A DNA stretch of 64,000 nt from a virus. This document shows positions 12,207 through 53,526 of the stretch, in pieces (position 1 is the stretch's first letter; every line of letters begins with the position of its first letter). Location of the stretch: IMG/VR virus record IMGVR_UViG_3300043788_000040, positions 106,564 to 170,563 of that record; one strand, 5' to 3'. Both the position numbers and the translations under genes were made by a program. The notes under the pieces are model-generated. The model made no database searches, was not told where the DNA came from, and worked only from the letters and a program-made list of their open reading frames with translations.

Positions 12207-14204
12207 TTAGTATTCGTACCCCACGACGCACACAGTCGCGTTGCCAGTGTTCACCTGCGAAAGTGTGCTGATGCCCACTTGCTGACCAGCCGCTATTTCT
12301 AATCCATCTGGAAAAACTTGCTCGGCGTTGCCTACGTCAGCCGTGCCTGAGGTCGTAGATGGAGAGGCGAATAGGGTGCAGTAAATCGGCGAGGTGACGA
12401 GGACAGCCGCAGCAGCGCGGATGCGTGCTTTGACTGCGCCGATGCCAGTATTGACTTGCGAAGCCAGCGTCATGCTCTGCATGCGGAACGTTTTACCAGC
12501 CGTCACGGTGTACGAAGTTCCCGTTGTCGTTGCACCGTTCTTGGTGATGCTCATCGTCTGCAAAGCTTCCGCCGCTGGGGCTGTAACGTTGTCGATATAC
12601 AACACCACTACGGTGCGACCAGAGTCCTTGAGTTCTTGCACCTTGGTCGGTGGTACTCCGTTGGATTGTGCCGCGAAACCAACGGTGACCGTGCCCGTCC
12701 CTGTGATAGCTGGGCTGAGTCGGACGCGGAAGTATTGCCAGCCTCCGATGTTGAACTTGAAGGAGATGTAGGTGCTGGCTTGGAACGTGTAGGACTGGAT
12801 GTCATTGCCGTCAGCGGCATAGTTGACACCTGAGGCTGCGACCCAGTTGGCGTTATCGTTGCTGACTTCGAAGTTGGCAGCACCACCCGTGATCGTCGTC
12901 GTCTGGTTGAAAGTGACTAGGATAGTGTTGTACGAAAAGTTCGCACTGAGCAGGGTGACGGCTGTATTGTTCGCTGTGGCAGATGTCCAAGATGCAGCGG
13001 CGGTGTTGCTAGTGCCGCTGTTCGCTTCCTTCAAAGCACCAATGGCGTCAACCTGCAAGGGCGATACGTTACCCGTGGTGATTGTAGTGGGGGTCGTGTT
13101 GAACTGTCCGGCGATCAGAAGCTCGTTGGCAGGAGAGGCTGCGTTTTGACCCGCAGCATCCATCGCCGCGCCCGTATTTCCGACAATGCCAACCTTCTGC
13201 ACACCAGCCGCAGCCGTTACGACAGCCACACCTGCCACTGCTTGCAGATCGTGATTGAGTGCGCCGTGTAAATCGGTAACGGGCAGGACTTGATCGCCTG
13301 TCGTGTAAGTGACAGTCGTGTACGCGGTCTCAGCAATCGCAGGCAGTACGCCAAGATTTTGAGCGTTCGGAGCCGCGTTATTGTTGGTCAAGTTGCCAAC
13401 GACTGTGAACGGTGCGGCTGGGTTTGTCACATTGACGTTCAGCGACGTGCCTGTCGCGGTGATCCCGGTGACGCCAGCGAACAGAGAAGAGTTGACGGCT
13501 GGAACTGCAACGGCTGCTGGAGCCGATCCGAAGTTTACAATCGCCGTGGCACCGAGTGCTGTACCTGCGACAGCTTGCAAATCTTGGTTGAGAGCACCGT
13601 GCAGGTCCGTGACGGGAAGCACCATGTCGCCCGTGGTGTAGGTGACGGTCGTGTACGCAGTCTCAGCAATAGCACCCAGTACGCCAACTAGCGTTGCGGT
13701 AGGAGCCGCGTTGTTGTTCGTTAGGTTTCCGTCAACGACCCATGGGGTTGTGCTCTGCGTGACACCCACGGTCCCTGAGATTGCTGTCGTGGAGAGGGAA
13801 CTGACAAACGAGTCAGCGGAGTATCCGATGGTGACCGTTCCCGTGCCTGTGATTGCCGAACTAAGAAGAACTTGAAAATACGGAATGGCGGTTAGGTTAA
13901 ACTGGAAGACCGCGTAGGTGTTCGCTTGAAGCGTGTACGTAGCTCCCACCAACGCCAGCGTGGAGGTGTTGAATCCTTGAAGGTTGAAGAAGTTTACGCC
14001 GTCGAAGCTGCCCTGAAATGTGACCACGCCGCCTGTGATCGTGGTGGTCTGTGACAGGGAAATGTTCAGGGTGTTGTAGGAGATGTCATTGCTGACCAGC
14101 GAGGCGACTGTGTTGAGAGCAGTGCTGCTGTTCCACGCGACAAACGAAGGGTTCTGCGAACCTACGCTGATACTTGCCGTGATGGAATACTGTGACTCAG
14201 GCAT
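12207..14204 (-). CDS. Putative virion/fibre protein with internal repeats
   Basis: Two GNLTNNNAAP...TDLHGALN.DLQAVAG modules 111 aa apart; C-terminal GYEY module. Confidence 0.7.
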   Translation of the reverse strand: MPESQYSITASISVGSQNPSFVAWNSSTALNTVASLVSNDISYNTLNISLSQTTTITGGVVTFQGSFDGVNFFNLQGFNTSTLALVGATYTLQANTYAVFQFNLTAIPYFQVLLSSAITGTGTVTIGYSADSFVSSLSTTAISGTVGVTQSTTPWVVDGNLTNNNAAPTATLVGVLGAIAETAYTTVTYTTGDMVLPVTDLHGALNQDLQAVAGTALGATAIVNFGSAPAAVAVPAVNSSLFAGVTGITATGTSLNVNVTNPAAPFTVVGNLTNNNAAPNAQNLGVLPAIAETAYTTVTYTTGDQVLPVTDLHGALNHDLQAVAGVAVVTAAAGVQKVGIVGNTGAAMDAAGQNAASPANELLIAGQFNTTPTTITTGNVSPLQVDAIGALKEANSGTSNTAAASWTSATANNTAVTLLSANFSYNTILVTFNQTTTITGGAANFEVSNDNANWVAASGVNYAADGNDIQSYTFQASTYISFKFNIGGWQYFRVRLSPAITGTGTVTVGFAAQSNGVPPTKVQELKDSGRTVVVLYIDNVTAPAAEALQTMSITKNGATTTGTSYTVTAGKTFRMQSMTLASQVNTGIGAVKARIRAAAAVLVTSPIYCTLFASPSTTSGTADVGNAEQVFPDGLEIAAGQQVGISTLSQVNTGNATVCVVGYEY

Positions 14205-14236: not shown

Positions 14237-14266
14237 AAAAGAAAAGGGGCACCTTGCGGTGCCCCT
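14237..14266 (-). terminator. Rho-independent terminator
   Basis: Minus strand AGGGGCACC-GCAA-GGTGCCCCT followed by TTTCTTTT. Confidence 0.85.
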
Positions 14267-14289
14267 CGTCCGAATGCCTCAACTTCAAG

Positions 14290-14305
14290 GCACGCCCTGA
14301 TAAAG
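14290..14305 (-). repeat. 16-bp perfect inverted repeat of the allo-tRNA anticodon arm (cis-antisense)
   Basis: + strand GCACGCCCTGATAAAG (14290-14305) is the exact reverse complement of CTTTATCAGGGCGTGC (14386-14401). Confidence 0.9.
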
Positions 14306-14342
14306 ATCAAAATTGATGACAGGCAGGATGGGTACGATCAAG

Positions 14343-14427
14343 CGGAAGGCACCGGAGTTGAACCGGAGAGGTTTCCCTCCCATCGCTTTATCAGGGCGTG
14401 CTCAATGACCTATTGAGATTACCTTCC
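14343..14427 (-). tRNA. Non-canonical 8/4 allo-tRNA; anticodon GAU, long variable arm, G73, no encoded CCA
   Basis: Acceptor GGAAGGTA/TGCCTTCC (8 bp); D stem CTCAAT/ATTGAG (6 bp); anticodon loop CTGATAA; variable arm GGAGG-GAAA-CCTCT; T arm CCGG-TTCAACT-CCGG (4 bp); discriminator G. Confidence 0.8.
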
Positions 14428-14450
14428 GAGAGCAGCCCTGCCTGTCAAAT

Positions 14451-14460
14451 GTCTAATACC
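14451..14460 (-). promoter_or_regulatory. GTATTAG-type promoter for the allo-tRNA unit
   Basis: Minus strand GGTATTAGAC, the recurrent motif, about 25 nt upstream of the tRNA. Confidence 0.6.
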
Positions 14461-14482
14461 CTCTCCCCAACAATTCAGCCGA

Positions 14483-16039
14483 TTAGATTGCAGCGGCTTC
14501 TTCTGACCAGCGGATGGAACCAAAAGCCTTGGAAGTACCAGTGCCGAACTTCTGAGCGGCAAGGGTGTAGGTGTCTCCAGGTGCCCCGGCAGCCATGTAC
14601 TGCAACAGCATGTCGGTGTGCGCGGGAGCCGAAGCAAGCATAGATGACCAAACCACGGTTCCGGTGCCGATAGTGACAGCAGTCGCCGTGACGTCACGCT
14701 TGATGTGCGAACCAGTCGGAATACCAGTCGCCGTGAACGCTGCGCCCGTGAGGGTTTGGGGGTTCTTGATGAGCACGACCTTGACCTGCGAGCCGTCTCC
14801 GTACGCCTGAACCTCGCGGATAAGGAATGACTCCGTGGTTGAGTTGGACTGAATCGAGATCAGCGGTACCAGCGTGGCGTTCGGCAGTGTGATGAGGGTC
14901 GTGAAGCCGGAGTCGTCAGCGAAGTAGTTGATTGACTGGGCATACTGCTCATCCGCAGGAATCGTGACCAGCGAACCGCCCTGCGACACGCGCAGAAGTT
15001 CTTGGTCGCCAGCGGTGTAAGCCGGGAGGGTGACGGTCGGGAACGTGCCGGAGTCCGTGACTGCGATCAACGCGCCGATGTTGTTCGTAGTCGGAGCCGC
15101 GTTGTTGTTCGTCAGGTTGCCAGCGATTACCCAAGGCGTGGTGCCCTGCGTGACTGCGACCGTGCCGCCCGTGACATCCACGTTCAGGCTGGAGCCTGTC
15201 GCGGTGATGCCCGTGGTTCCGGCGAAGATTGAAACGTTCGCGCCGATTACGTTTGCAGCAGCGGGTGCCGTACCGAAGGCGGTAACAGCAGTCGCACCCA
15301 GTTGGACGCCAGCCGAAGCCTGCATGTCGTTGTTGACTGCGCCATGGAGGTCGGTGACTGCCAGTACTTGGTTGCCCGTCGTGTAGGTGACGGTGTTGTA
15401 AGCGGTCTCAGCGATGAAGCCCAGCACGCCCATGTTGTCGGCAATCGGGGCTGCCGTGTTGTTAGACAGGTTGCCAGCAACCGTGACGGTAGTCGTGCTA
15501 CCAGTCAGGTTGACGTTCAGCGCACCGCCCGTGTTCGTCAGAGCCGTGGTGCCTGAGAAGATTGAGGAGTTGACAGCCGGAACGTTTACAGCGGCCGGAG
15601 CCGAACCGAAGGCGACTACTGCGGTCGCGCCAAGCTGGACGCCAGCAACAGCCTGCAAGTCGTCATTGACTGCTCCATGCAAGTCGGTGGTCGCCAGAAC
15701 TTGGAAGCCGTTCGTGTAGGTGTTGGTCGTGTACGCGGTTGAAGCAAGGAAGCCAAGCGTGCCGAGGTTGTCTGCAACGGGCGCTGCGTTGTTGTTCGTC
15801 AACGTGCCCATGACGTTCGTGGTGCCCGCGAACGTGGCGTTGACGTTTAGAAAGCCGTTTGGAGTGGACGAGAGCGGCTGGAAGTTGCCGTTGCTGTCCA
15901 TGCTGCCGACTAGGATGCCCGATGTCGGGGACGCTGTGCCATTAGCAGCAAATAAAGGCGATTCGGTGTTGTTGTCGTACAACCCGGAGACTGTGACTGT
16001 CGTGTACTGGTCAGTTCCGGGGAATAGTGTCAATGGCAT
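14483..16039 (-). CDS. Putative virion/fibre protein with internal repeats
   Basis: Three G(N/T)L(T/S)NN(N/T)AAP module starts homologous to 12207-14204; C-terminal domain resembles that of 16117-17307. Confidence 0.7.
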   Translation of the reverse strand: MPLTLFPGTDQYTTVTVSGLYDNNTESPLFAANGTASPTSGILVGSMDSNGNFQPLSSTPNGFLNVNATFAGTTNVMGTLTNNNAAPVADNLGTLGFLASTAYTTNTYTNGFQVLATTDLHGAVNDDLQAVAGVQLGATAVVAFGSAPAAVNVPAVNSSIFSGTTALTNTGGALNVNLTGSTTTVTVAGNLSNNTAAPIADNMGVLGFIAETAYNTVTYTTGNQVLAVTDLHGAVNNDMQASAGVQLGATAVTAFGTAPAAANVIGANVSIFAGTTGITATGSSLNVDVTGGTVAVTQGTTPWVIAGNLTNNNAAPTTNNIGALIAVTDSGTFPTVTLPAYTAGDQELLRVSQGGSLVTIPADEQYAQSINYFADDSGFTTLITLPNATLVPLISIQSNSTTESFLIREVQAYGDGSQVKVVLIKNPQTLTGAAFTATGIPTGSHIKRDVTATAVTIGTGTVVWSSMLASAPAHTDMLLQYMAAGAPGDTYTLAAQKFGTGTSKAFGSIRWSEEAAAI

Positions 16040-31260: not shown

Positions 31261-31419
31261 ATGATGAACTTCTGCACAGCCTGCCAGAAACCGTACGACG
31301 AAGAAACGCCGTGCGACTGCGACGCGGCTGGGCTGCAACCTGTTCCGGCGTTCACTCAATGGTTTGAAGATCAAGAAGACATTGACTTCAAAGATTCACG
31401 AAGAATCAACAATGACTGA
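31261..31419 (+). CDS. Small Cys-containing protein (52 aa) coupled to cca
   Basis: Manual read MMNFCTACQKPYDEETPCDC...; stop overlaps the cca start. Confidence 0.5.
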   Translation: MMNFCTACQKPYDEETPCDCDAAGLQPVPAFTQWFEDQEDIDFKDSRRINND

Positions 31420-32713
31420 TTCCTTCCATCTCGCAGCGCACGTCAAGGTGATGCACACCCTTGAGCACCACGGCTTTGAGGCTTTCCTCGTCGGTGGCTG
31501 CGTGCGTGACCGCCTTCTCCAACGGCAATCCAAAGACTTTGACGTGACGACTAACGCCACGCCCGATGAAGTTCGTGCGATCTTCCCCAAGACCATTCCA
31601 GTCGGCGCAAAGTTCGGCGTCGTGGTCGTGGTGATGGACGGTGTTCAGATTGAAGTCGCCACCTACCGTGCTGATGGCGCATACACTGACGGTCGGCGAC
31701 CGGATGAAGTCACGTACAGCAAGAGTGCGAAGGACGACGTGACTCGCCGGGACTTCACCATGAACGGCTTGCTGATGAATTCCCTCGGCGAGATCACTGA
31801 CTACGTTGAAGGTCAGGCAGACATCAATCGTGGAATCATCCGTGCCATCGGTGACCCGAACGTGCGCTTCACTGAGGACGCACTGCGCATGCTTCGTGCC
31901 GTCCGTTTCGCAGCACAGCTTGGTTTTGAAATTGAGATCAGGACTCTTGAGGCAATCAGGGACAACGCACGGCTGCTCAAGGTCATTAGCCGGGAGCGTG
32001 TCGCTGCCGAACTGTTCAAAATCTTCTCTGCACCCTTTCCCCTCAAGGGAATCGTGCCTTTCATTTCCACCGGGCTGTTCCGCTACGCCCTGCCGGACAA
32101 TTTCGCTGAGCAAGCGAACATGACACGCACGATTCAGCGCTTCGGCACGTTCACGGCAAACAAAGACGCCATGCTCGGCATGGGAATGTTCTTCGCCGAT
32201 CTGGAATACCTCGGACACAATGCTGACCGCTTGGCAGATTACCTCAAGCTGTCCACGGCGCAGAAGGAAGAGATCGTTTACATGCGGTACCACGTGACCC
32301 GTTTCGGGCAGCACTTGACCGGAGACCTGTTGACCGAGGCTACGCTCAAGCGCAAGCTGCGCACGCCGGGCGTTGAACTGGCGCTGGAGATCATGACGCA
32401 AAACGAAGTCATGGGCAAGACCAATTTCGGCTTTGAGGCGCTGATGGGTTTTGTTCACAAGGTCAGGGCGTACACACCGGAGCAGATCAAGCCGAAGCCG
32501 CTCGTCACGGGCAAGGACTTGATTGATGCCGGGATACCAGCCGGACCGATCTTCACGAGCATCCTGTTTGACGTGGAGAGTCACCAACTTAACGGCGTGT
32601 TCACGACGAAAGAGCAGGGCATGAGTTTCGTGCGTGAGCGCACCTACCAAGACACGCTCAAGGAATGGAACTACATGGGCTTGTCCACGGCGGAAGTGCG
32701 GGAGCTAGAATGA
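31412..32713 (+). CDS. cca: CCA-adding tRNA nucleotidyltransferase (class II)
   Basis: VGGCVRD, DFDVTT, EVATYR, RRDFTMNG, EDALRMLRAVRF, SRERV..EL. Confidence 0.93.
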   Translation: MTDSFHLAAHVKVMHTLEHHGFEAFLVGGCVRDRLLQRQSKDFDVTTNATPDEVRAIFPKTIPVGAKFGVVVVVMDGVQIEVATYRADGAYTDGRRPDEVTYSKSAKDDVTRRDFTMNGLLMNSLGEITDYVEGQADINRGIIRAIGDPNVRFTEDALRMLRAVRFAAQLGFEIEIRTLEAIRDNARLLKVISRERVAAELFKIFSAPFPLKGIVPFISTGLFRYALPDNFAEQANMTRTIQRFGTFTANKDAMLGMGMFFADLEYLGHNADRLADYLKLSTAQKEEIVYMRYHVTRFGQHLTGDLLTEATLKRKLRTPGVELALEIMTQNEVMGKTNFGFEALMGFVHKVRAYTPEQIKPKPLVTGKDLIDAGIPAGPIFTSILFDVESHQLNGVFTTKEQGMSFVRERTYQDTLKEWNYMGLSTAEVRELE

Positions 32714-38221: not shown

Positions 38222-38434
38222 CCATGCGACCCAAAGAGACCGAGATCGCCAAGGTTGTTCGCAACTGCGACGGCTCCATGGACATCACTTTCCGTGACGA
38301 TTCCAACGCCCGGTACGCAGTGTTCACCATGCAAGACGGTGGCAAGATCAAGTTCAAGGACCCCAAAGGGGCGTACCAAGCCAGCAGGCGAGTGGTTGAG
38401 GTTTCCATTCGCGGTTGACGGCGTATTAGACTAG

Positions 38435-40417
38435 GTGCCAGATCAAGAAAATTTCTCCAGTTGCCCTCTGTGGACGGCATACGCGACAGACGAAGGTCTA
38501 AAGACCGACGTCCGTCCGTTTGCCGCCCTCAGCAGGGATATGCTTGAACGGCTCTACATCATCCGCAAGTGGCCGATTGACGCTGTAAACAATCCCATCC
38601 CCCTAAAGCTGCCTGACCTCGTTCGTACGCATCACTACGACCCGTTCACGCACAGTCTCACCGATACCCCACTGGTTGTCAAAGAATTCCAGAAGCAAGC
38701 GATCCTCCACCTCGTCAGGATGCCTCGGTTCATCCTCGGCGATGCCGTGGGTCTAGGTAAGACACTGGACGCCCTCGTGGCGTTCGCCTGGCTCAAGGCG
38801 AAGAACCCGCAGGCGAAAATGGTCGTCGTCACCACCAAGTCCACCACGTACCAGTGGGCGGACGAATGCCAGAAGTACACCAAGCTGCGGCCGAGAGTCA
38901 TGACCGACACGTACAACGGGATGAAGTCCAAGAATGCCCGCTACGCCCAGATGCGGGACTTCCTTGAAAAGGACGATTACGACATCCTGATCTGCAAGTA
39001 CGACTCGCTCAAAGGCAACCGCAAAATTATCATGGTGGACGGTGTGAAGCAGCGTGAACGTGAGTCCGAGGAAACCACGTTTTACAAGGGCATATTCAAG
39101 GAGCACCGCAGCAAGCTGGTGCTGACGTTGGATGAGTGTCACCGATTCCGCAAGACCGGAACCCAGACCCGGCACTTCATCGCCCGTGTCTGCCGTTTCC
39201 CAGAGCGTGTGTGGGCACTAACAGCGACAGCCATCAAGAACGGACTGGACGAATTCTACTCCATAGCGCACGCTATCGGCGTGCAGCCACTCGGCCCGAT
39301 GACCCAGTTCTGGGAGGAGTACTGCCTGTGGCGTGAACAGCACATCGGAAACGGGCGTAAAATCAGGCTGATTAGAGGGTATCAGAACGTCGCACACTTC
39401 AAGGAACAGTTGCGCCCTTTCTTCCTTGGGCGTTCACAGAAGCAGGTCAACGAAAAGCTCCCTGCGCTGACTACTGTCTATCACCCAATTGATCTTGACG
39501 AGAAGCAAGCAAAGTTGCTCATAGAAATTCCGCTGGGTTTGATTGAGCTTCCGCCGATCTTTTTCAAGGTCGCCGGAGAAGTGTTTGAGAAGGAGCGTGA
39601 CGCCTCCAACGAGATGACCCAGCTTTCTTGCCAGCAGCTTGTGGCAAACCACTGGGCACTGCTTGACCGCAACACCCCCGAGACGTTTCTCACAACACAG
39701 CTTTCCCCGAAGGAAGATGCACTGCTGGACATGCTTGACGGCGAGTACCGGGGTGAGAAGGTCGTGGTCTACACGAAATACCGAAGCTGGATTGATCGCC
39801 TCCAGTGGCTCACCGAGAACGGGAAGTTCACCGAACGTAAGTTCCTGCGCATCACAGGTGCCGAGAATGAAGCTCAGCGCAACGAGAACAAGCGAAAGTT
39901 TCAAGACCCCAACTCCGGCTACGATCTGATCGTGGTCAATGCGGCGGGTATGGAGGGCATCAACCTTCAGCAGGCGGCGCACATGGTCATGCTGGACGTG
40001 CCGTGGTCGTGGGGCGATCTGATCCAGCTTGTGGGACGCATGGTGCGCATGGCTTCACCACATTCCGCCTGCACGCTGCACATCATGGTTGCCAAGGGAA
40101 CGATTGACGAGTACGCTATAGACACGCTGCGGGGAAAGAAGGGGGTCTTTGAGGCCATCTTGGGTAATAGCCACTCGGCTGGTATCCTAGACAGTGGAGA
40201 CAGTTTAGACTTACAAGCAGGCATGGAGGTCGCCGGGAGCGACACGGAGTTCAAGAGTTTGCTGAAGGCGTACGCCAAGAAGATAGGCATGGGAAAGTAC
40301 CTCAAGGGCGACCAGATCACGGCAGCGCAGGATTTGGAATATCAGATGGGGTTTGAGCGTGAACCTGGCAAGAAGAAGCGCAAGAAAAAGGAGCAAGACA
40401 ACTCATGGGCATTTTAG
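38435..40417 (+). CDS. SNF2-family (SF2) helicase
   Basis: GDAVGLGKT, LDECH, LTATAIKN, EGINLQQA, DVPWSWG..Q..GRMVR. Confidence 0.92.
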   Translation: MPDQENFSSCPLWTAYATDEGLKTDVRPFAALSRDMLERLYIIRKWPIDAVNNPIPLKLPDLVRTHHYDPFTHSLTDTPLVVKEFQKQAILHLVRMPRFILGDAVGLGKTLDALVAFAWLKAKNPQAKMVVVTTKSTTYQWADECQKYTKLRPRVMTDTYNGMKSKNARYAQMRDFLEKDDYDILICKYDSLKGNRKIIMVDGVKQRERESEETTFYKGIFKEHRSKLVLTLDECHRFRKTGTQTRHFIARVCRFPERVWALTATAIKNGLDEFYSIAHAIGVQPLGPMTQFWEEYCLWREQHIGNGRKIRLIRGYQNVAHFKEQLRPFFLGRSQKQVNEKLPALTTVYHPIDLDEKQAKLLIEIPLGLIELPPIFFKVAGEVFEKERDASNEMTQLSCQQLVANHWALLDRNTPETFLTTQLSPKEDALLDMLDGEYRGEKVVVYTKYRSWIDRLQWLTENGKFTERKFLRITGAENEAQRNENKRKFQDPNSGYDLIVVNAAGMEGINLQQAAHMVMLDVPWSWGDLIQLVGRMVRMASPHSACTLHIMVAKGTIDEYAIDTLRGKKGVFEAILGNSHSAGILDSGDSLDLQAGMEVAGSDTEFKSLLKAYAKKIGMGKYLKGDQITAAQDLEYQMGFEREPGKKKRKKKEQDNSWAF

Positions 40418-48120: not shown

Positions 48121-48140
48121 CTTTTCGGTATTAGAAAGTC

Positions 48141-48572
48141 ATGAGTGAAGTTTGTCCTAAGTGCGGTGAGACCGATCTGTCTAAGTTCTCCAAGAATAAG
48201 AGACGACCTAACGGATACCAAGGTTACTGCAAGATTTGCATGAAGGATTATCGTGCTAATTGGCTAGCGCGAAATCCGGACCAGACAGCCATACGGTTTG
48301 GAAGAAGACTCGCTTCTTGGCAAAAGCGGGGCGTGAGCATCACGAAAGAAGTGTATGACGGAATGCTCAGCAAGCAGCAAAATCTGTGTGCTCTCTGCCA
48401 TGAACCGTTTGACGAACCACAAGCGCCTGCGGTAGACCATGATCACATTACGGGGAAAGTTCGGGCTTTACTACATAAACGCTGCAATGCGGCTATTGGG
48501 TTTTTGGGTGATGACCCTAAAAAAGTCCGTTGTGCGTTGGAGTATCTGGAAAGCCATCTACAAAAGCCATAG
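48141..48572 (+). CDS. Endonuclease VII-family (homing-type) nuclease
   Basis: CPKC...CKIC; Q..LCALC...VDHDHITGKVRALLHKRCNAAIG..GDD. Confidence 0.88.
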   Translation: MSEVCPKCGETDLSKFSKNKRRPNGYQGYCKICMKDYRANWLARNPDQTAIRFGRRLASWQKRGVSITKEVYDGMLSKQQNLCALCHEPFDEPQAPAVDHDHITGKVRALLHKRCNAAIGFLGDDPKKVRCALEYLESHLQKP

Positions 48573-52994: not shown

Positions 52995-53016
52995 CTAAAT
53001 CGGGTATTAGATAGGC

Positions 53017-53526
53017 ATGACGCCTCAAGAACATCATGCCTATCTTGATACCTGTTGCGAGTACGCCCGAATGTCCCCCTGCGCGAAGGCGCGGGTAGGC
53101 GCTCTAGTAGTGTCGGCTGGTCAGGTCGTCGGTACTGGCTACAACCATTCTCCAAATCCCGCATGCAACGATTGCGCCACGATGTGCTCTGGCGGTATCC
53201 GTAAAGGCATCCCCTCCGGCACACGGCTGGAACTTTGCTACGCCGTCCACGCAGAGCAGTGGGCGATCCACGAGGCCGGACCACTCGCCAAGGGCGGCAC
53301 GCTCTACGTCGCATCGTTTGACCAGGACTGGAAGAGGCGGCTCAAAGACCCGTCCCTCCCGCTGGGGCATCCCATGCGGGGTTTCTACTGCTCCCTCTGC
53401 GCCCGTGCCATCTGGATGGCGGGCATTGATCTTGTCATCACCGACAGCATCAACGGCATCATTGAGCACACACCCGAAGACATCTGGAAGGCCTCCTTTA
53501 GCTACGGCGTTGCCGCGAGTATTTAG
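53017..53526 (+). CDS. Cytidine/dCMP deaminase-family protein
   Basis: SPC...VGALVV...GYN...VHAEQWAI...CSLCARAI..AGI. Confidence 0.85.
   Translation: MTPQEHHAYLDTCCEYARMSPCAKARVGALVVSAGQVVGTGYNHSPNPACNDCATMCSGGIRKGIPSGTRLELCYAVHAEQWAIHEAGPLAKGGTLYVASFDQDWKRRLKDPSLPLGHPMRGFYCSLCARAIWMAGIDLVITDSINGIIEHTPEDIWKASFSYGVAASI

Follow-up and report, generated by a model that had tools for sequence, protein, structure and literature searches.

A lineage-specific insertion between two fibre-like genes

The window analysed here is the last 64 kb (64,000 nt) of the 170.5-kb IMG/VR record IMGVR_UViG_3300043788_000040, which comes from an uncultured giant soil phage. The record has an estimated completeness of 54% and a G+C content of 56%. 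On its minus strand, between two genes for repeat-rich fibre-like proteins, the window carries a unit made up of a phage promoter motif, a tRNA-like core with a GAU anticodon and a 3' trailer that is perfectly complementary to the anticodon arm of that core. The upstream flanking gene (14483..16039, minus strand) encodes 518 amino acids (aa) and adjoins a PHROG virion structural protein. The downstream flanking gene (12207..14204, minus strand) encodes 665 aa. The two proteins are paralogs, with 69% identity across their repeats.

Relatives, the closest of which are metagenome records, were found by a search with the unique N-terminus of the 665-aa downstream protein (61-86% identity), and seven of these loci were aligned. 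The seven relatives have in common the stop-codon context, a spacer of 13-20 nt, a terminator and a ribosome-binding region, and their fibre-like genes are separated by 82-92 nt, versus 278 nt in the window. The approximately 197 extra nucleotides (about 14275..14471, minus strand) are absent from all seven and contain the promoter motif, a leader segment that forms stem A with a trailer segment A', the tRNA-like core, the antisense segment B' and a small hairpin. Judging by this alignment, the unit is a true insertion between two fibre-like structural genes, as an earlier sequence-only reading of the locus had proposed. At its left edge the insertion carries, in inverted orientation, an 8-nt motif that also occurs in the spacer of a single relative (L037).

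The insertion was placed directly upstream of an intrinsic terminator (14237..14267, minus strand), an 8-10-bp GC stem followed by UUUUCUUUU. The same terminator is found in 7/7 aligned relatives (including the equivalents in L035-L044), and the compensatory changes in its stem across these loci make a small, clean case of covariation. It is an ancestral intergenic element that was not delivered by the insertion. The sequence-only reading had credited the unit with a promoter and a terminator of its own; the promoter stands, but the terminator was there before the unit.

Two other readings of the spacer were tried and rejected. A split gene or an intron was suggested by one relative whose single fibre gene of 1257 aa matches both flanks. 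However, the flanks are paralogs that share repeats, the closer relatives have two genes at the short spacing given above, and Rfam returned no intron match. An antiterminator was rejected as well, the sole alternative pairing of the terminator being a weak 7-bp helix that includes two G-U pairs.

The phage is rich in genes connected with tRNA. ARAGORN finds 31 tRNA genes in the 170.5-kb record, arranged in arrays, with clusters at 30.5-33.5, 68.4-70.7 and 75.0-79.7 kb of the record. All 31 encode CCA, and none of the 31 is a tRNA-Ser or a tRNA-Ile gene. The element between the fibre-like genes stands alone, outside these arrays. The protein set of the phage includes a T4-type RNA ligase 1 (Rnl1), a nucleotidyltransferase of the CCA-adding type (31364-32713 of the window) and a Ro60 (TROVE) protein. 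No phage gene for RNase III was found in the sequenced part of the genome.

Two side observations concern these surroundings. Downstream of the CCA, most of the resident tRNAs have a short A/G-(A/T)-TTTG-like motif, possibly a common processing or spacing signal. The fibre-like proteins are built of repeats of about 110 aa with an NNNAAP...TDLHGALN motif, seen in the window genes and in L004:3299-7072 and L012:3998-7660; among relatives the number of repeats varies and so does the number of genes (one long or two shorter).

An 8/4 tRNA-like core of chimeric origin

The tRNA-like core (14343..14427, minus strand) was recognized as an 8/4 cloverleaf from its minimum free energy (MFE) fold, from a sub-threshold match to the Rfam tRNA-Sec family and from ARAGORN at -ps90. 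All its parts lie on the minus strand. The acceptor stem has 8 bp, including a U7-G wobble and A8-U (14427-14420 with 14351-14344), and a linker of 2 nt leads to a D arm with a 6-bp stem and the 5-nt loop AGGUC, which holds GG (14417-14401). The anticodon arm (14400-14381) has GAU at 14392-14390. Next come a variable arm of 5 bp with a GAAA loop (14380-14367), a T arm with a 4-bp stem and the loop UUCAACU (14366-14352) and the discriminator G73 (14343). For the 85-nt core the 8/4 cloverleaf is the MFE structure, at -31.0 kcal/mol and 34% of the ensemble (z = -2.7). The 8/4 split is supported by this fold and by the relaxed ARAGORN drawing; the 7/5 alternative leaves a U-U mismatch and an A at position 8.

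The 8/4 branch, the 6-bp D stem, the long variable arm, G73 and the GAU anticodon are therefore all present as the sequence-only reading had listed them, but the anticodon arm is not sound. Its stem consists of three G-C pairs and two further pairs past a bulged A, and the arm alone is worth -1.5 kcal/mol. Its loop counts 9 nt, which a closing C-A mismatch would reduce to 7 nt. The bases after G73 are CUUG; the element does not encode CCA, unlike 31/31 resident tRNAs.

Detection programs treat the element as a borderline tRNA. ARAGORN at default settings reports no tRNA gene there, and at 90% of its threshold calls a tRNA-Ile(gat) with the same 8/4 drawing. The Rfam tRNA-Sec match, at 32 bits (E = 0.021), is the top family match in the 64-kb window and lies under the gathering score of 47; its alignment of the D arm needs one insertion, the loop having 5 nt versus a tetraloop. 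Because that model also gives 33-48 bits to ordinary Ser, Gly and Leu tRNAs of this phage and of related phages, the match means a class II tRNA-like RNA with a long acceptor and D stem, and not a tRNA for Sec.

The body of the element is of the Ser type: it has G1-C72, G2-C71, A3-U70, G73 and a long variable arm, and its acceptor agrees with that of real tRNA-Ser genes. A 21-mer of the T arm and acceptor matched a canonical 7/5 phage tRNA-Ser(CGA) on the metagenome contig L051. The element is identical to this tRNA over the first 6 nt and over the last 25 nt, from the T loop to two bases past G73. Relative to it, three substitutions (C7U, U8A and A49U) turn 7/5 into 8/4 while the 3' strand is unchanged, and the D arm has been rebuilt. 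The region L051:55-4057 of this 52-kb contig contains 19 tRNA genes in 4 kb, none of which encodes CCA, like the element. The Ser identity that the sequence-only reading had assigned to the body is thus borne out both by the identity set and by the 25 identical nucleotides at the 3' end.

The anticodon arm has a different source. It holds all 17 nt of a bacterial tRNA-Ile(GAU) arm, in order, as checked in two Acidobacteriota tRNA-Ile genes, together with three 1-nt insertions: a C and an A that enlarge the loop and an A that bulges the stem. As judged from these matches, the RNA is a chimera of a tRNA-Ser body and a disabled tRNA-Ile(GAU) arm. It differs from either parent in being a hybrid of both that ARAGORN refuses at default settings.

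The published tRNAs that it most resembles are the (8/4) allo-tRNAs of soil bacteria, whose defining traits include a long variable arm with G73 or U73 as identity elements for SerRS, and charging with Ser or Ala (Mukai et al. 2017, PMC5389517; review PMC7609411). Certain allo-tRNAs insert Ser at sense codons in E. coli, whereas those with an Ile anticodon and destabilised stems, the allo-tRNA(UAU) group of soil Acidobacteria, were inactive in translation (PMC5389517). As in the allo-tRNAs, the acceptor branch of the element totals 12 bp in an 8/4 split, its 6-bp D stem closes on a short loop, its variable arm is long and its discriminator is G73; it likewise joins a Ser-type acceptor to a non-Ser (Ile) anticodon. 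With the allo-tRNA(UAU) group it has in common destabilised stems, a suspected role outside translation and a soil setting. The allo-tRNAs were found through the tRNA-Sec covariance model, on which the element stays under the gathering score, and 8/4 tRNAs have also been reported in phages. The element differs in having GAU instead of UAU, an anticodon stem of 5 bp with a bulge and a C-A mismatch instead of a clean 6-bp stem with a 7-nt loop, and a D loop of 5 nt instead of 4. It also lies in a structural-gene region of a phage and not beside toxin-antitoxin or transposon genes. The closest published kind is the inactive allo-tRNA(UAU) group (PMC5389517), a likeness drawn from published descriptions.

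Promoter, leader/trailer stem and antisense trailer

The unit begins with the phage promoter motif GTATTAGA (14452..14459, minus strand). The window has 8 occurrences of this motif versus an expectation of 0.27, and the whole 170-kb record has 11, in agreement with the promoter that the sequence-only reading had marked here. In three genes it ends 4-5 nt ahead of an ATG or GTG start codon, and it fits a -10-type element producing leaderless mRNAs. The three sites are at 38423-38435, 48128-48143 and 53004-53019, before an SNF2 helicase, a small Zn-ribbon-like open reading frame and a dCMP deaminase. Because of this spacing, transcription is predicted to start 5-6 nt downstream of the motif, at 14446-14447, which are the first two bases of stem A. 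Besides the SNF2 helicase and dCMP deaminase genes, the motif precedes Rnl1 (with the CCA-adding enzyme after it), the Ro60 locus and a GIY-YIG nuclease. Since the same motif precedes those genes, the unit bears a promoter of the nucleic-acid/RNA-repair class despite its structural-gene surroundings. The predicted full transcript folds much better than its shuffles (z = -4.6), none of 200 shuffles being as good.

The leader and the trailer of this predicted transcript are joined by stem A, in which the 5' arm (14437..14447, minus strand) pairs with the 3' arm A' (14317..14327, minus strand). The stem comprises 11 perfect Watson-Crick pairs and a G14436-U14328 extension, with a duplex energy of -20.5 kcal/mol. 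Further along the trailer lies segment B' (14290..14305, minus strand), a perfect 16-nt complement in cis of segment B (14386..14401, minus strand), which runs from the last base of the D stem through the 5' side of the anticodon stem and its complete 9-nt loop to a single base on the 3' side of that stem. Both inverted repeats are as the sequence-only reading had described them. A small 7-bp hairpin (14274..14293, minus strand), seen in the MFE folds, overlaps the last 4 nt of B'. Because B' spans both of the insertions in the anticodon loop, it arose or co-evolved after the arm had been altered. A 32-codon ATG-to-TGA frame (14383-14285, minus strand) crosses the variable arm, the T arm, A' and B' and contains three AUC codons; it has no Shine-Dalgarno sequence, its ATG is inside the cloverleaf and it ends 18 nt before the terminator stem.

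The B/B' pair is the sole non-palindromic inverted repeat of at least 14 nt within 250 nt in the 64-kb window. Flank antisense to the anticodon region of more than 12 nt was found in none of 105 real tRNAs and in none of 806 relaxed-threshold ARAGORN calls (742 kb), and no similarly locked tRNA was found among 29 Acidobacteriota tRNA-Sec genes. Two tRNA-Sec cases with long flank complements concern the T arm or the 3' end, and not the anticodon arm. In the Acidobacteriota tRNA-Sec gene at L104:1497-1770, the 3' end recurs in inverted orientation over 37 nt about 140 nt away, at the edge of the contig; this repeat may belong to a second gene copy facing the first or be what is left of an attachment site. 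Copies of stem A elsewhere in the phage are just chance 11-13-mers within coding sequence.

The B:B' duplex is worth -28.9 kcal/mol, versus -1.5 for the anticodon stem that it would displace. A state with the cloverleaf and A:A' has -87.9 kcal/mol and a nested state with B:B' has -84.2, which are nearly equal. Since the anticodon stem is so weak, B' could nucleate on the 9-nt loop. Formation of this clamp is thermodynamically plausible, and according to the folding model the outcome may be a pseudoknot, if sterically allowed, or switching between two folds of near-equal energy. Among 105 tRNAs, the best partner of B' is its own arm (-29.5 kcal/mol), followed by tRNA-Ile(GAU) genes at about -20.

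In eukaryotic and archaeal pre-tRNAs that contain an intron, base pairing with this intron keeps the anticodon loop of the precursor masked. This anticodon-intron helix appears to be the sole conceptual parallel to the trailer clamp, since there too a sequence in cis covers the anticodon loop. Unlike the intron, which is spliced out of the loop, the masking sequence here is a 3' trailer 80 nt away that would form a 16-bp duplex and for which no route of removal is evident.

Another family with points of likeness is the YrlA-type Y RNAs, partners of Ro60/Rsr. The unit resembles them in its tRNA-like module, in its paired 5' and 3' ends, in being predicted to be a stable non-coding RNA and in the theme of anticodon-arm look-alikes; GTATTAGA, as noted, also precedes the Ro60 locus of the phage. 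However, YrlA is permuted and has a sealed acceptor end, whereas the unit has normal tRNA topology, an open acceptor side and a long 3' extension. The YrlA model (Rfam RF02553) gave no match up to E = 10, and no motif of at least 10 nt is common to the unit and the putative Y-RNA region of the phage. The unit is not a YrlA-type Y RNA.

No homolog of the unit was found by blastn in 50,697 phage records, by exact and gapped patterns in IMG/VR, metagenome contigs and species genomes, or by a single-sequence covariance model in 24 related viral records and 151 Acidobacteriota genomes. The matches to the covariance model are ordinary tRNA-Ser and tRNA-Thr only. Pattern matches in species genomes were dismissed: they are a 21-mer that lies in no tRNA and a long palindrome without relation to the unit. 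Two of the 151 genomes (G048 and G073) are unpublished, and no conclusion is based on them. The sequence-only reading would have taken absence of the inverted repeat from homologous loci as telling against it; the repeat is indeed absent there, but only in the trivial sense that these loci are without the whole unit. The papers searched on trailers complementary to an anticodon and on tRNA-like decoys of anticodon nucleases describe nothing comparable, and neither the cis antisense nor the leader/trailer stem is described in the allo-tRNA papers (PMC5389517, PMC7609411).

As an observation apart, the 21-mer GGTTCAACTCCGGTGCCTTCC from the 3' half of the tRNA occurs outside any tRNA in one Thermoanaerobaculia metagenome-assembled genome (L045:7730-7750), directly upstream of a rimK-like gene, and in three soil metagenome contigs (L049/L052; L050). 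These occurrences may be scars of tRNA fragments or chance.

Possible roles of the unit

Our leading reading, which we hold tentatively, is that the unit is transcribed on its own, as an RNA of about 210 nt that would work at full length as a stable, non-decoding tRNA mimic. Driven by the GTATTAGA promoter, transcription would begin with the opening bases of stem A and would stop at the pre-existing terminator. The 5' end would be buried in the 11-12-bp A:A' stem and the 3' end in the terminator hairpin. In the middle, a Ser-type 8/4 body with an intact T-loop/D-loop elbow would carry the disabled tRNA-Ile(GAU) anticodon arm. The weak stem of this arm would fail to hold, and B' would pair with the arm, to give either the pseudoknot or the near-isoenergetic long-hairpin fold. 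Right at the predicted start, the 5' end is closed off within a stem, which hints that the RNA works at full length.

Such an RNA may have its part in the tRNA-centred dealings between phage and host by mimicking a tRNA, or serving as a decoy, towards a factor that binds tRNAs. The promoter class that the unit has in common with the Rnl1, CCA-adding enzyme and Ro60 genes points in this direction, and a role in a tRNA-centred phage-host conflict is the most economical guess. CdiA-CT of E. coli EC3006 is one example of a bacterial tRNase specific for tRNA-Ile (PMC9424206).

Several points weigh against the mimic. That a decoy should conceal its own anticodon loop is not self-explanatory, and it is because this hiding is not fully explained that our confidence stays below even. 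The unit is a singleton, absent from 7/7 aligned relatives and with no homolog in the collections searched; no conserved or covarying copy therefore backs the pairing, and selection on the repeats is conjectural. Perfect, wobble-free repeats could stem from a recent event at the DNA level and not from selection on RNA pairing. Charging would still be possible without an encoded CCA, since the CCA-adding enzyme of the phage could supply it.

Some of these points lead to a different account, which we consider rather unlikely: a recent recombination or template switch among tRNA genes left a functionless Ser/Ile hybrid with inverted duplications in the spacer, intact only because it is new. The chimeric ancestry is clear, the repeats are perfect and free of G-U pairs, the left edge carries the inverted 8-nt motif of the L037 spacer, and the unit is missing from all relatives examined and from the collections searched. 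A mere accident, however, would have to account for 28/28 intact cloverleaf pairs, and the change from 7/5 to 8/4 needs three coordinated substitutions. It would also have to account for a perfect promoter motif with its start placed on stem A, for an insertion directly upstream of a working terminator, and for a B' that covers both loop insertions exactly, so that its origin or co-evolution must have followed the remodelling of the arm.

The sequence-only reading had inferred that the mature RNA would insert Ser at Ile codons and that its antisense keeps it locked until it is processed. According to this account, RNase P and a 3' nuclease would free an 8/4 allo-tRNA, CCA would be added, seryl-tRNA synthetase would charge it, AUC and AUU would be read as Ser, and the antisense would delay these steps. 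Much of the anatomy suits it: the Ser identity set with G73 and the long variable arm, a body derived from a real tRNA-Ser, the canonical CUGAUAA core of the loop, and a CCA-adding enzyme encoded by the phage. A clamp in cis is most sensible if exposure of the anticodon matters, and for some allo-tRNAs the insertion of Ser at sense codons is documented in E. coli (PMC5389517). However, the insertions degrade what was a functional Ile arm, leaving a 9-nt loop or a C-A closure, a bulged A and the stem of -1.5 kcal/mol; CCA is not encoded, versus 31/31 resident tRNAs; and Ile-to-Ser errors would strike the phage's own proteins. The two ends are placed in helices, with the 5' end sealed, and trimming the ends would not undo the lock, since a cleaved trailer stays bound through the duplex of -29 kcal/mol. 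The published analogues, the allo-tRNA(UAU) group, are inactive in translation (PMC5389517). Neither the insertion of Ser nor release by processing is upheld by these data; we regard the locked pro-tRNA as improbable and a Ser-for-Ile mistranslating tRNA as less likely than a non-decoding mimic. The same points that tell against a Ser decoder favour a stable, full-length, non-decoding mimic.

It is possible to look at the unit from its other end, as a tRNA-like processing handle attached to an antisense small RNA. The tRNA-like part would recruit RNase P/Z or RNase E, the trailer with B', the hairpin and the terminator would be freed, and its seed would target tRNA-Ile(GAU)-like arms, such as that of the host tRNA-Ile precursor made from rRNA operons, with the mimic arm restraining the seed. 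The trailer is shaped for such a part, since it combines an AU-rich single-stranded stretch and a seed with a hairpin and a U-tailed terminator, and the best trans partners of B' among the 105 tRNAs are three tRNA-Ile(GAU) genes (-20 kcal/mol). Small RNAs linked to tRNAs are an established idea: in the E. coli 3'ETS-leuZ sponge and the tRNA-miRNA units of gammaherpesvirus 68, one transcript joins a tRNA or tRNA-like element to a functional small RNA downstream, and tRNA-processing enzymes then separate the two, much as would happen here. The trailers of those systems, however, are not complementary to their own tRNA. Here B' is perfectly complementary to the mimic and has two bulges against real tRNA-Ile, and a hand-over would therefore be thermodynamically uphill. 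Mature tRNAs are also folded and modified, and no further target was found in 170 kb of phage sequence. A small RNA of this kind seems to us improbable as well.

A conditional tRNA is, in our estimate, a quite improbable variant. The RNA would be a Ser-chargeable 8/4 tRNA or a tRNA-Ile-arm decoy with its anticodon masked by the antisense, freed only once the trailer has been taken off by a specific nuclease or helicase. The trigger might be a Ro60-linked decay machinery of the phage itself or a host defence nuclease. If true, the unit would provide timed or triggered Ile-to-Ser miscoding or a burst of decoy, an RNA-only switch that is absent from the papers searched. Highly improbable, finally, are a DNA-level element (a recombination site, cruciform or set of protein-binding palindromes), which the interleaved and perfect inverted repeats might suggest although they lie 80-110 bp apart, unlike known invertase or integrase sites, with no recombinase nearby, and a translated leader coupled to the terminator, for which the 32-codon frame with its three AUC codons ends 18 nt from the terminator stem but lacks a Shine-Dalgarno sequence and has its ATG inside the cloverleaf; against both, promoter, tRNA fold and terminator all indicate an RNA product.

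What appears to be new here is the trailer-borne clamp on an anticodon arm, of which the papers searched contain no description and which so far rests on one sequence. Should the unit be a young accident, it would still record how chimeric tRNA-like genes originate and how they land beside ready-made terminators. If the RNA is made and the clamp forms, the unit would be a natural example of a tRNA-shaped RNA in which the transcript itself turns off the anticodon arm, in the setting of a phage with tRNA arrays, an RNA ligase, a CCA-adding enzyme and Ro60. The allo-tRNA story would then reach from soil bacteria to a giant phage, and a route by which such RNAs are built would be visible: three substitutions that lead from a 7/5 tRNA-Ser to an 8/4 body, plus a grafted and disabled tRNA-Ile arm. 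The unit would also offer a test object of about 200 nt for the mimicry or baiting of tRNA-binding enzymes by phages and for engineered anticodon masking.

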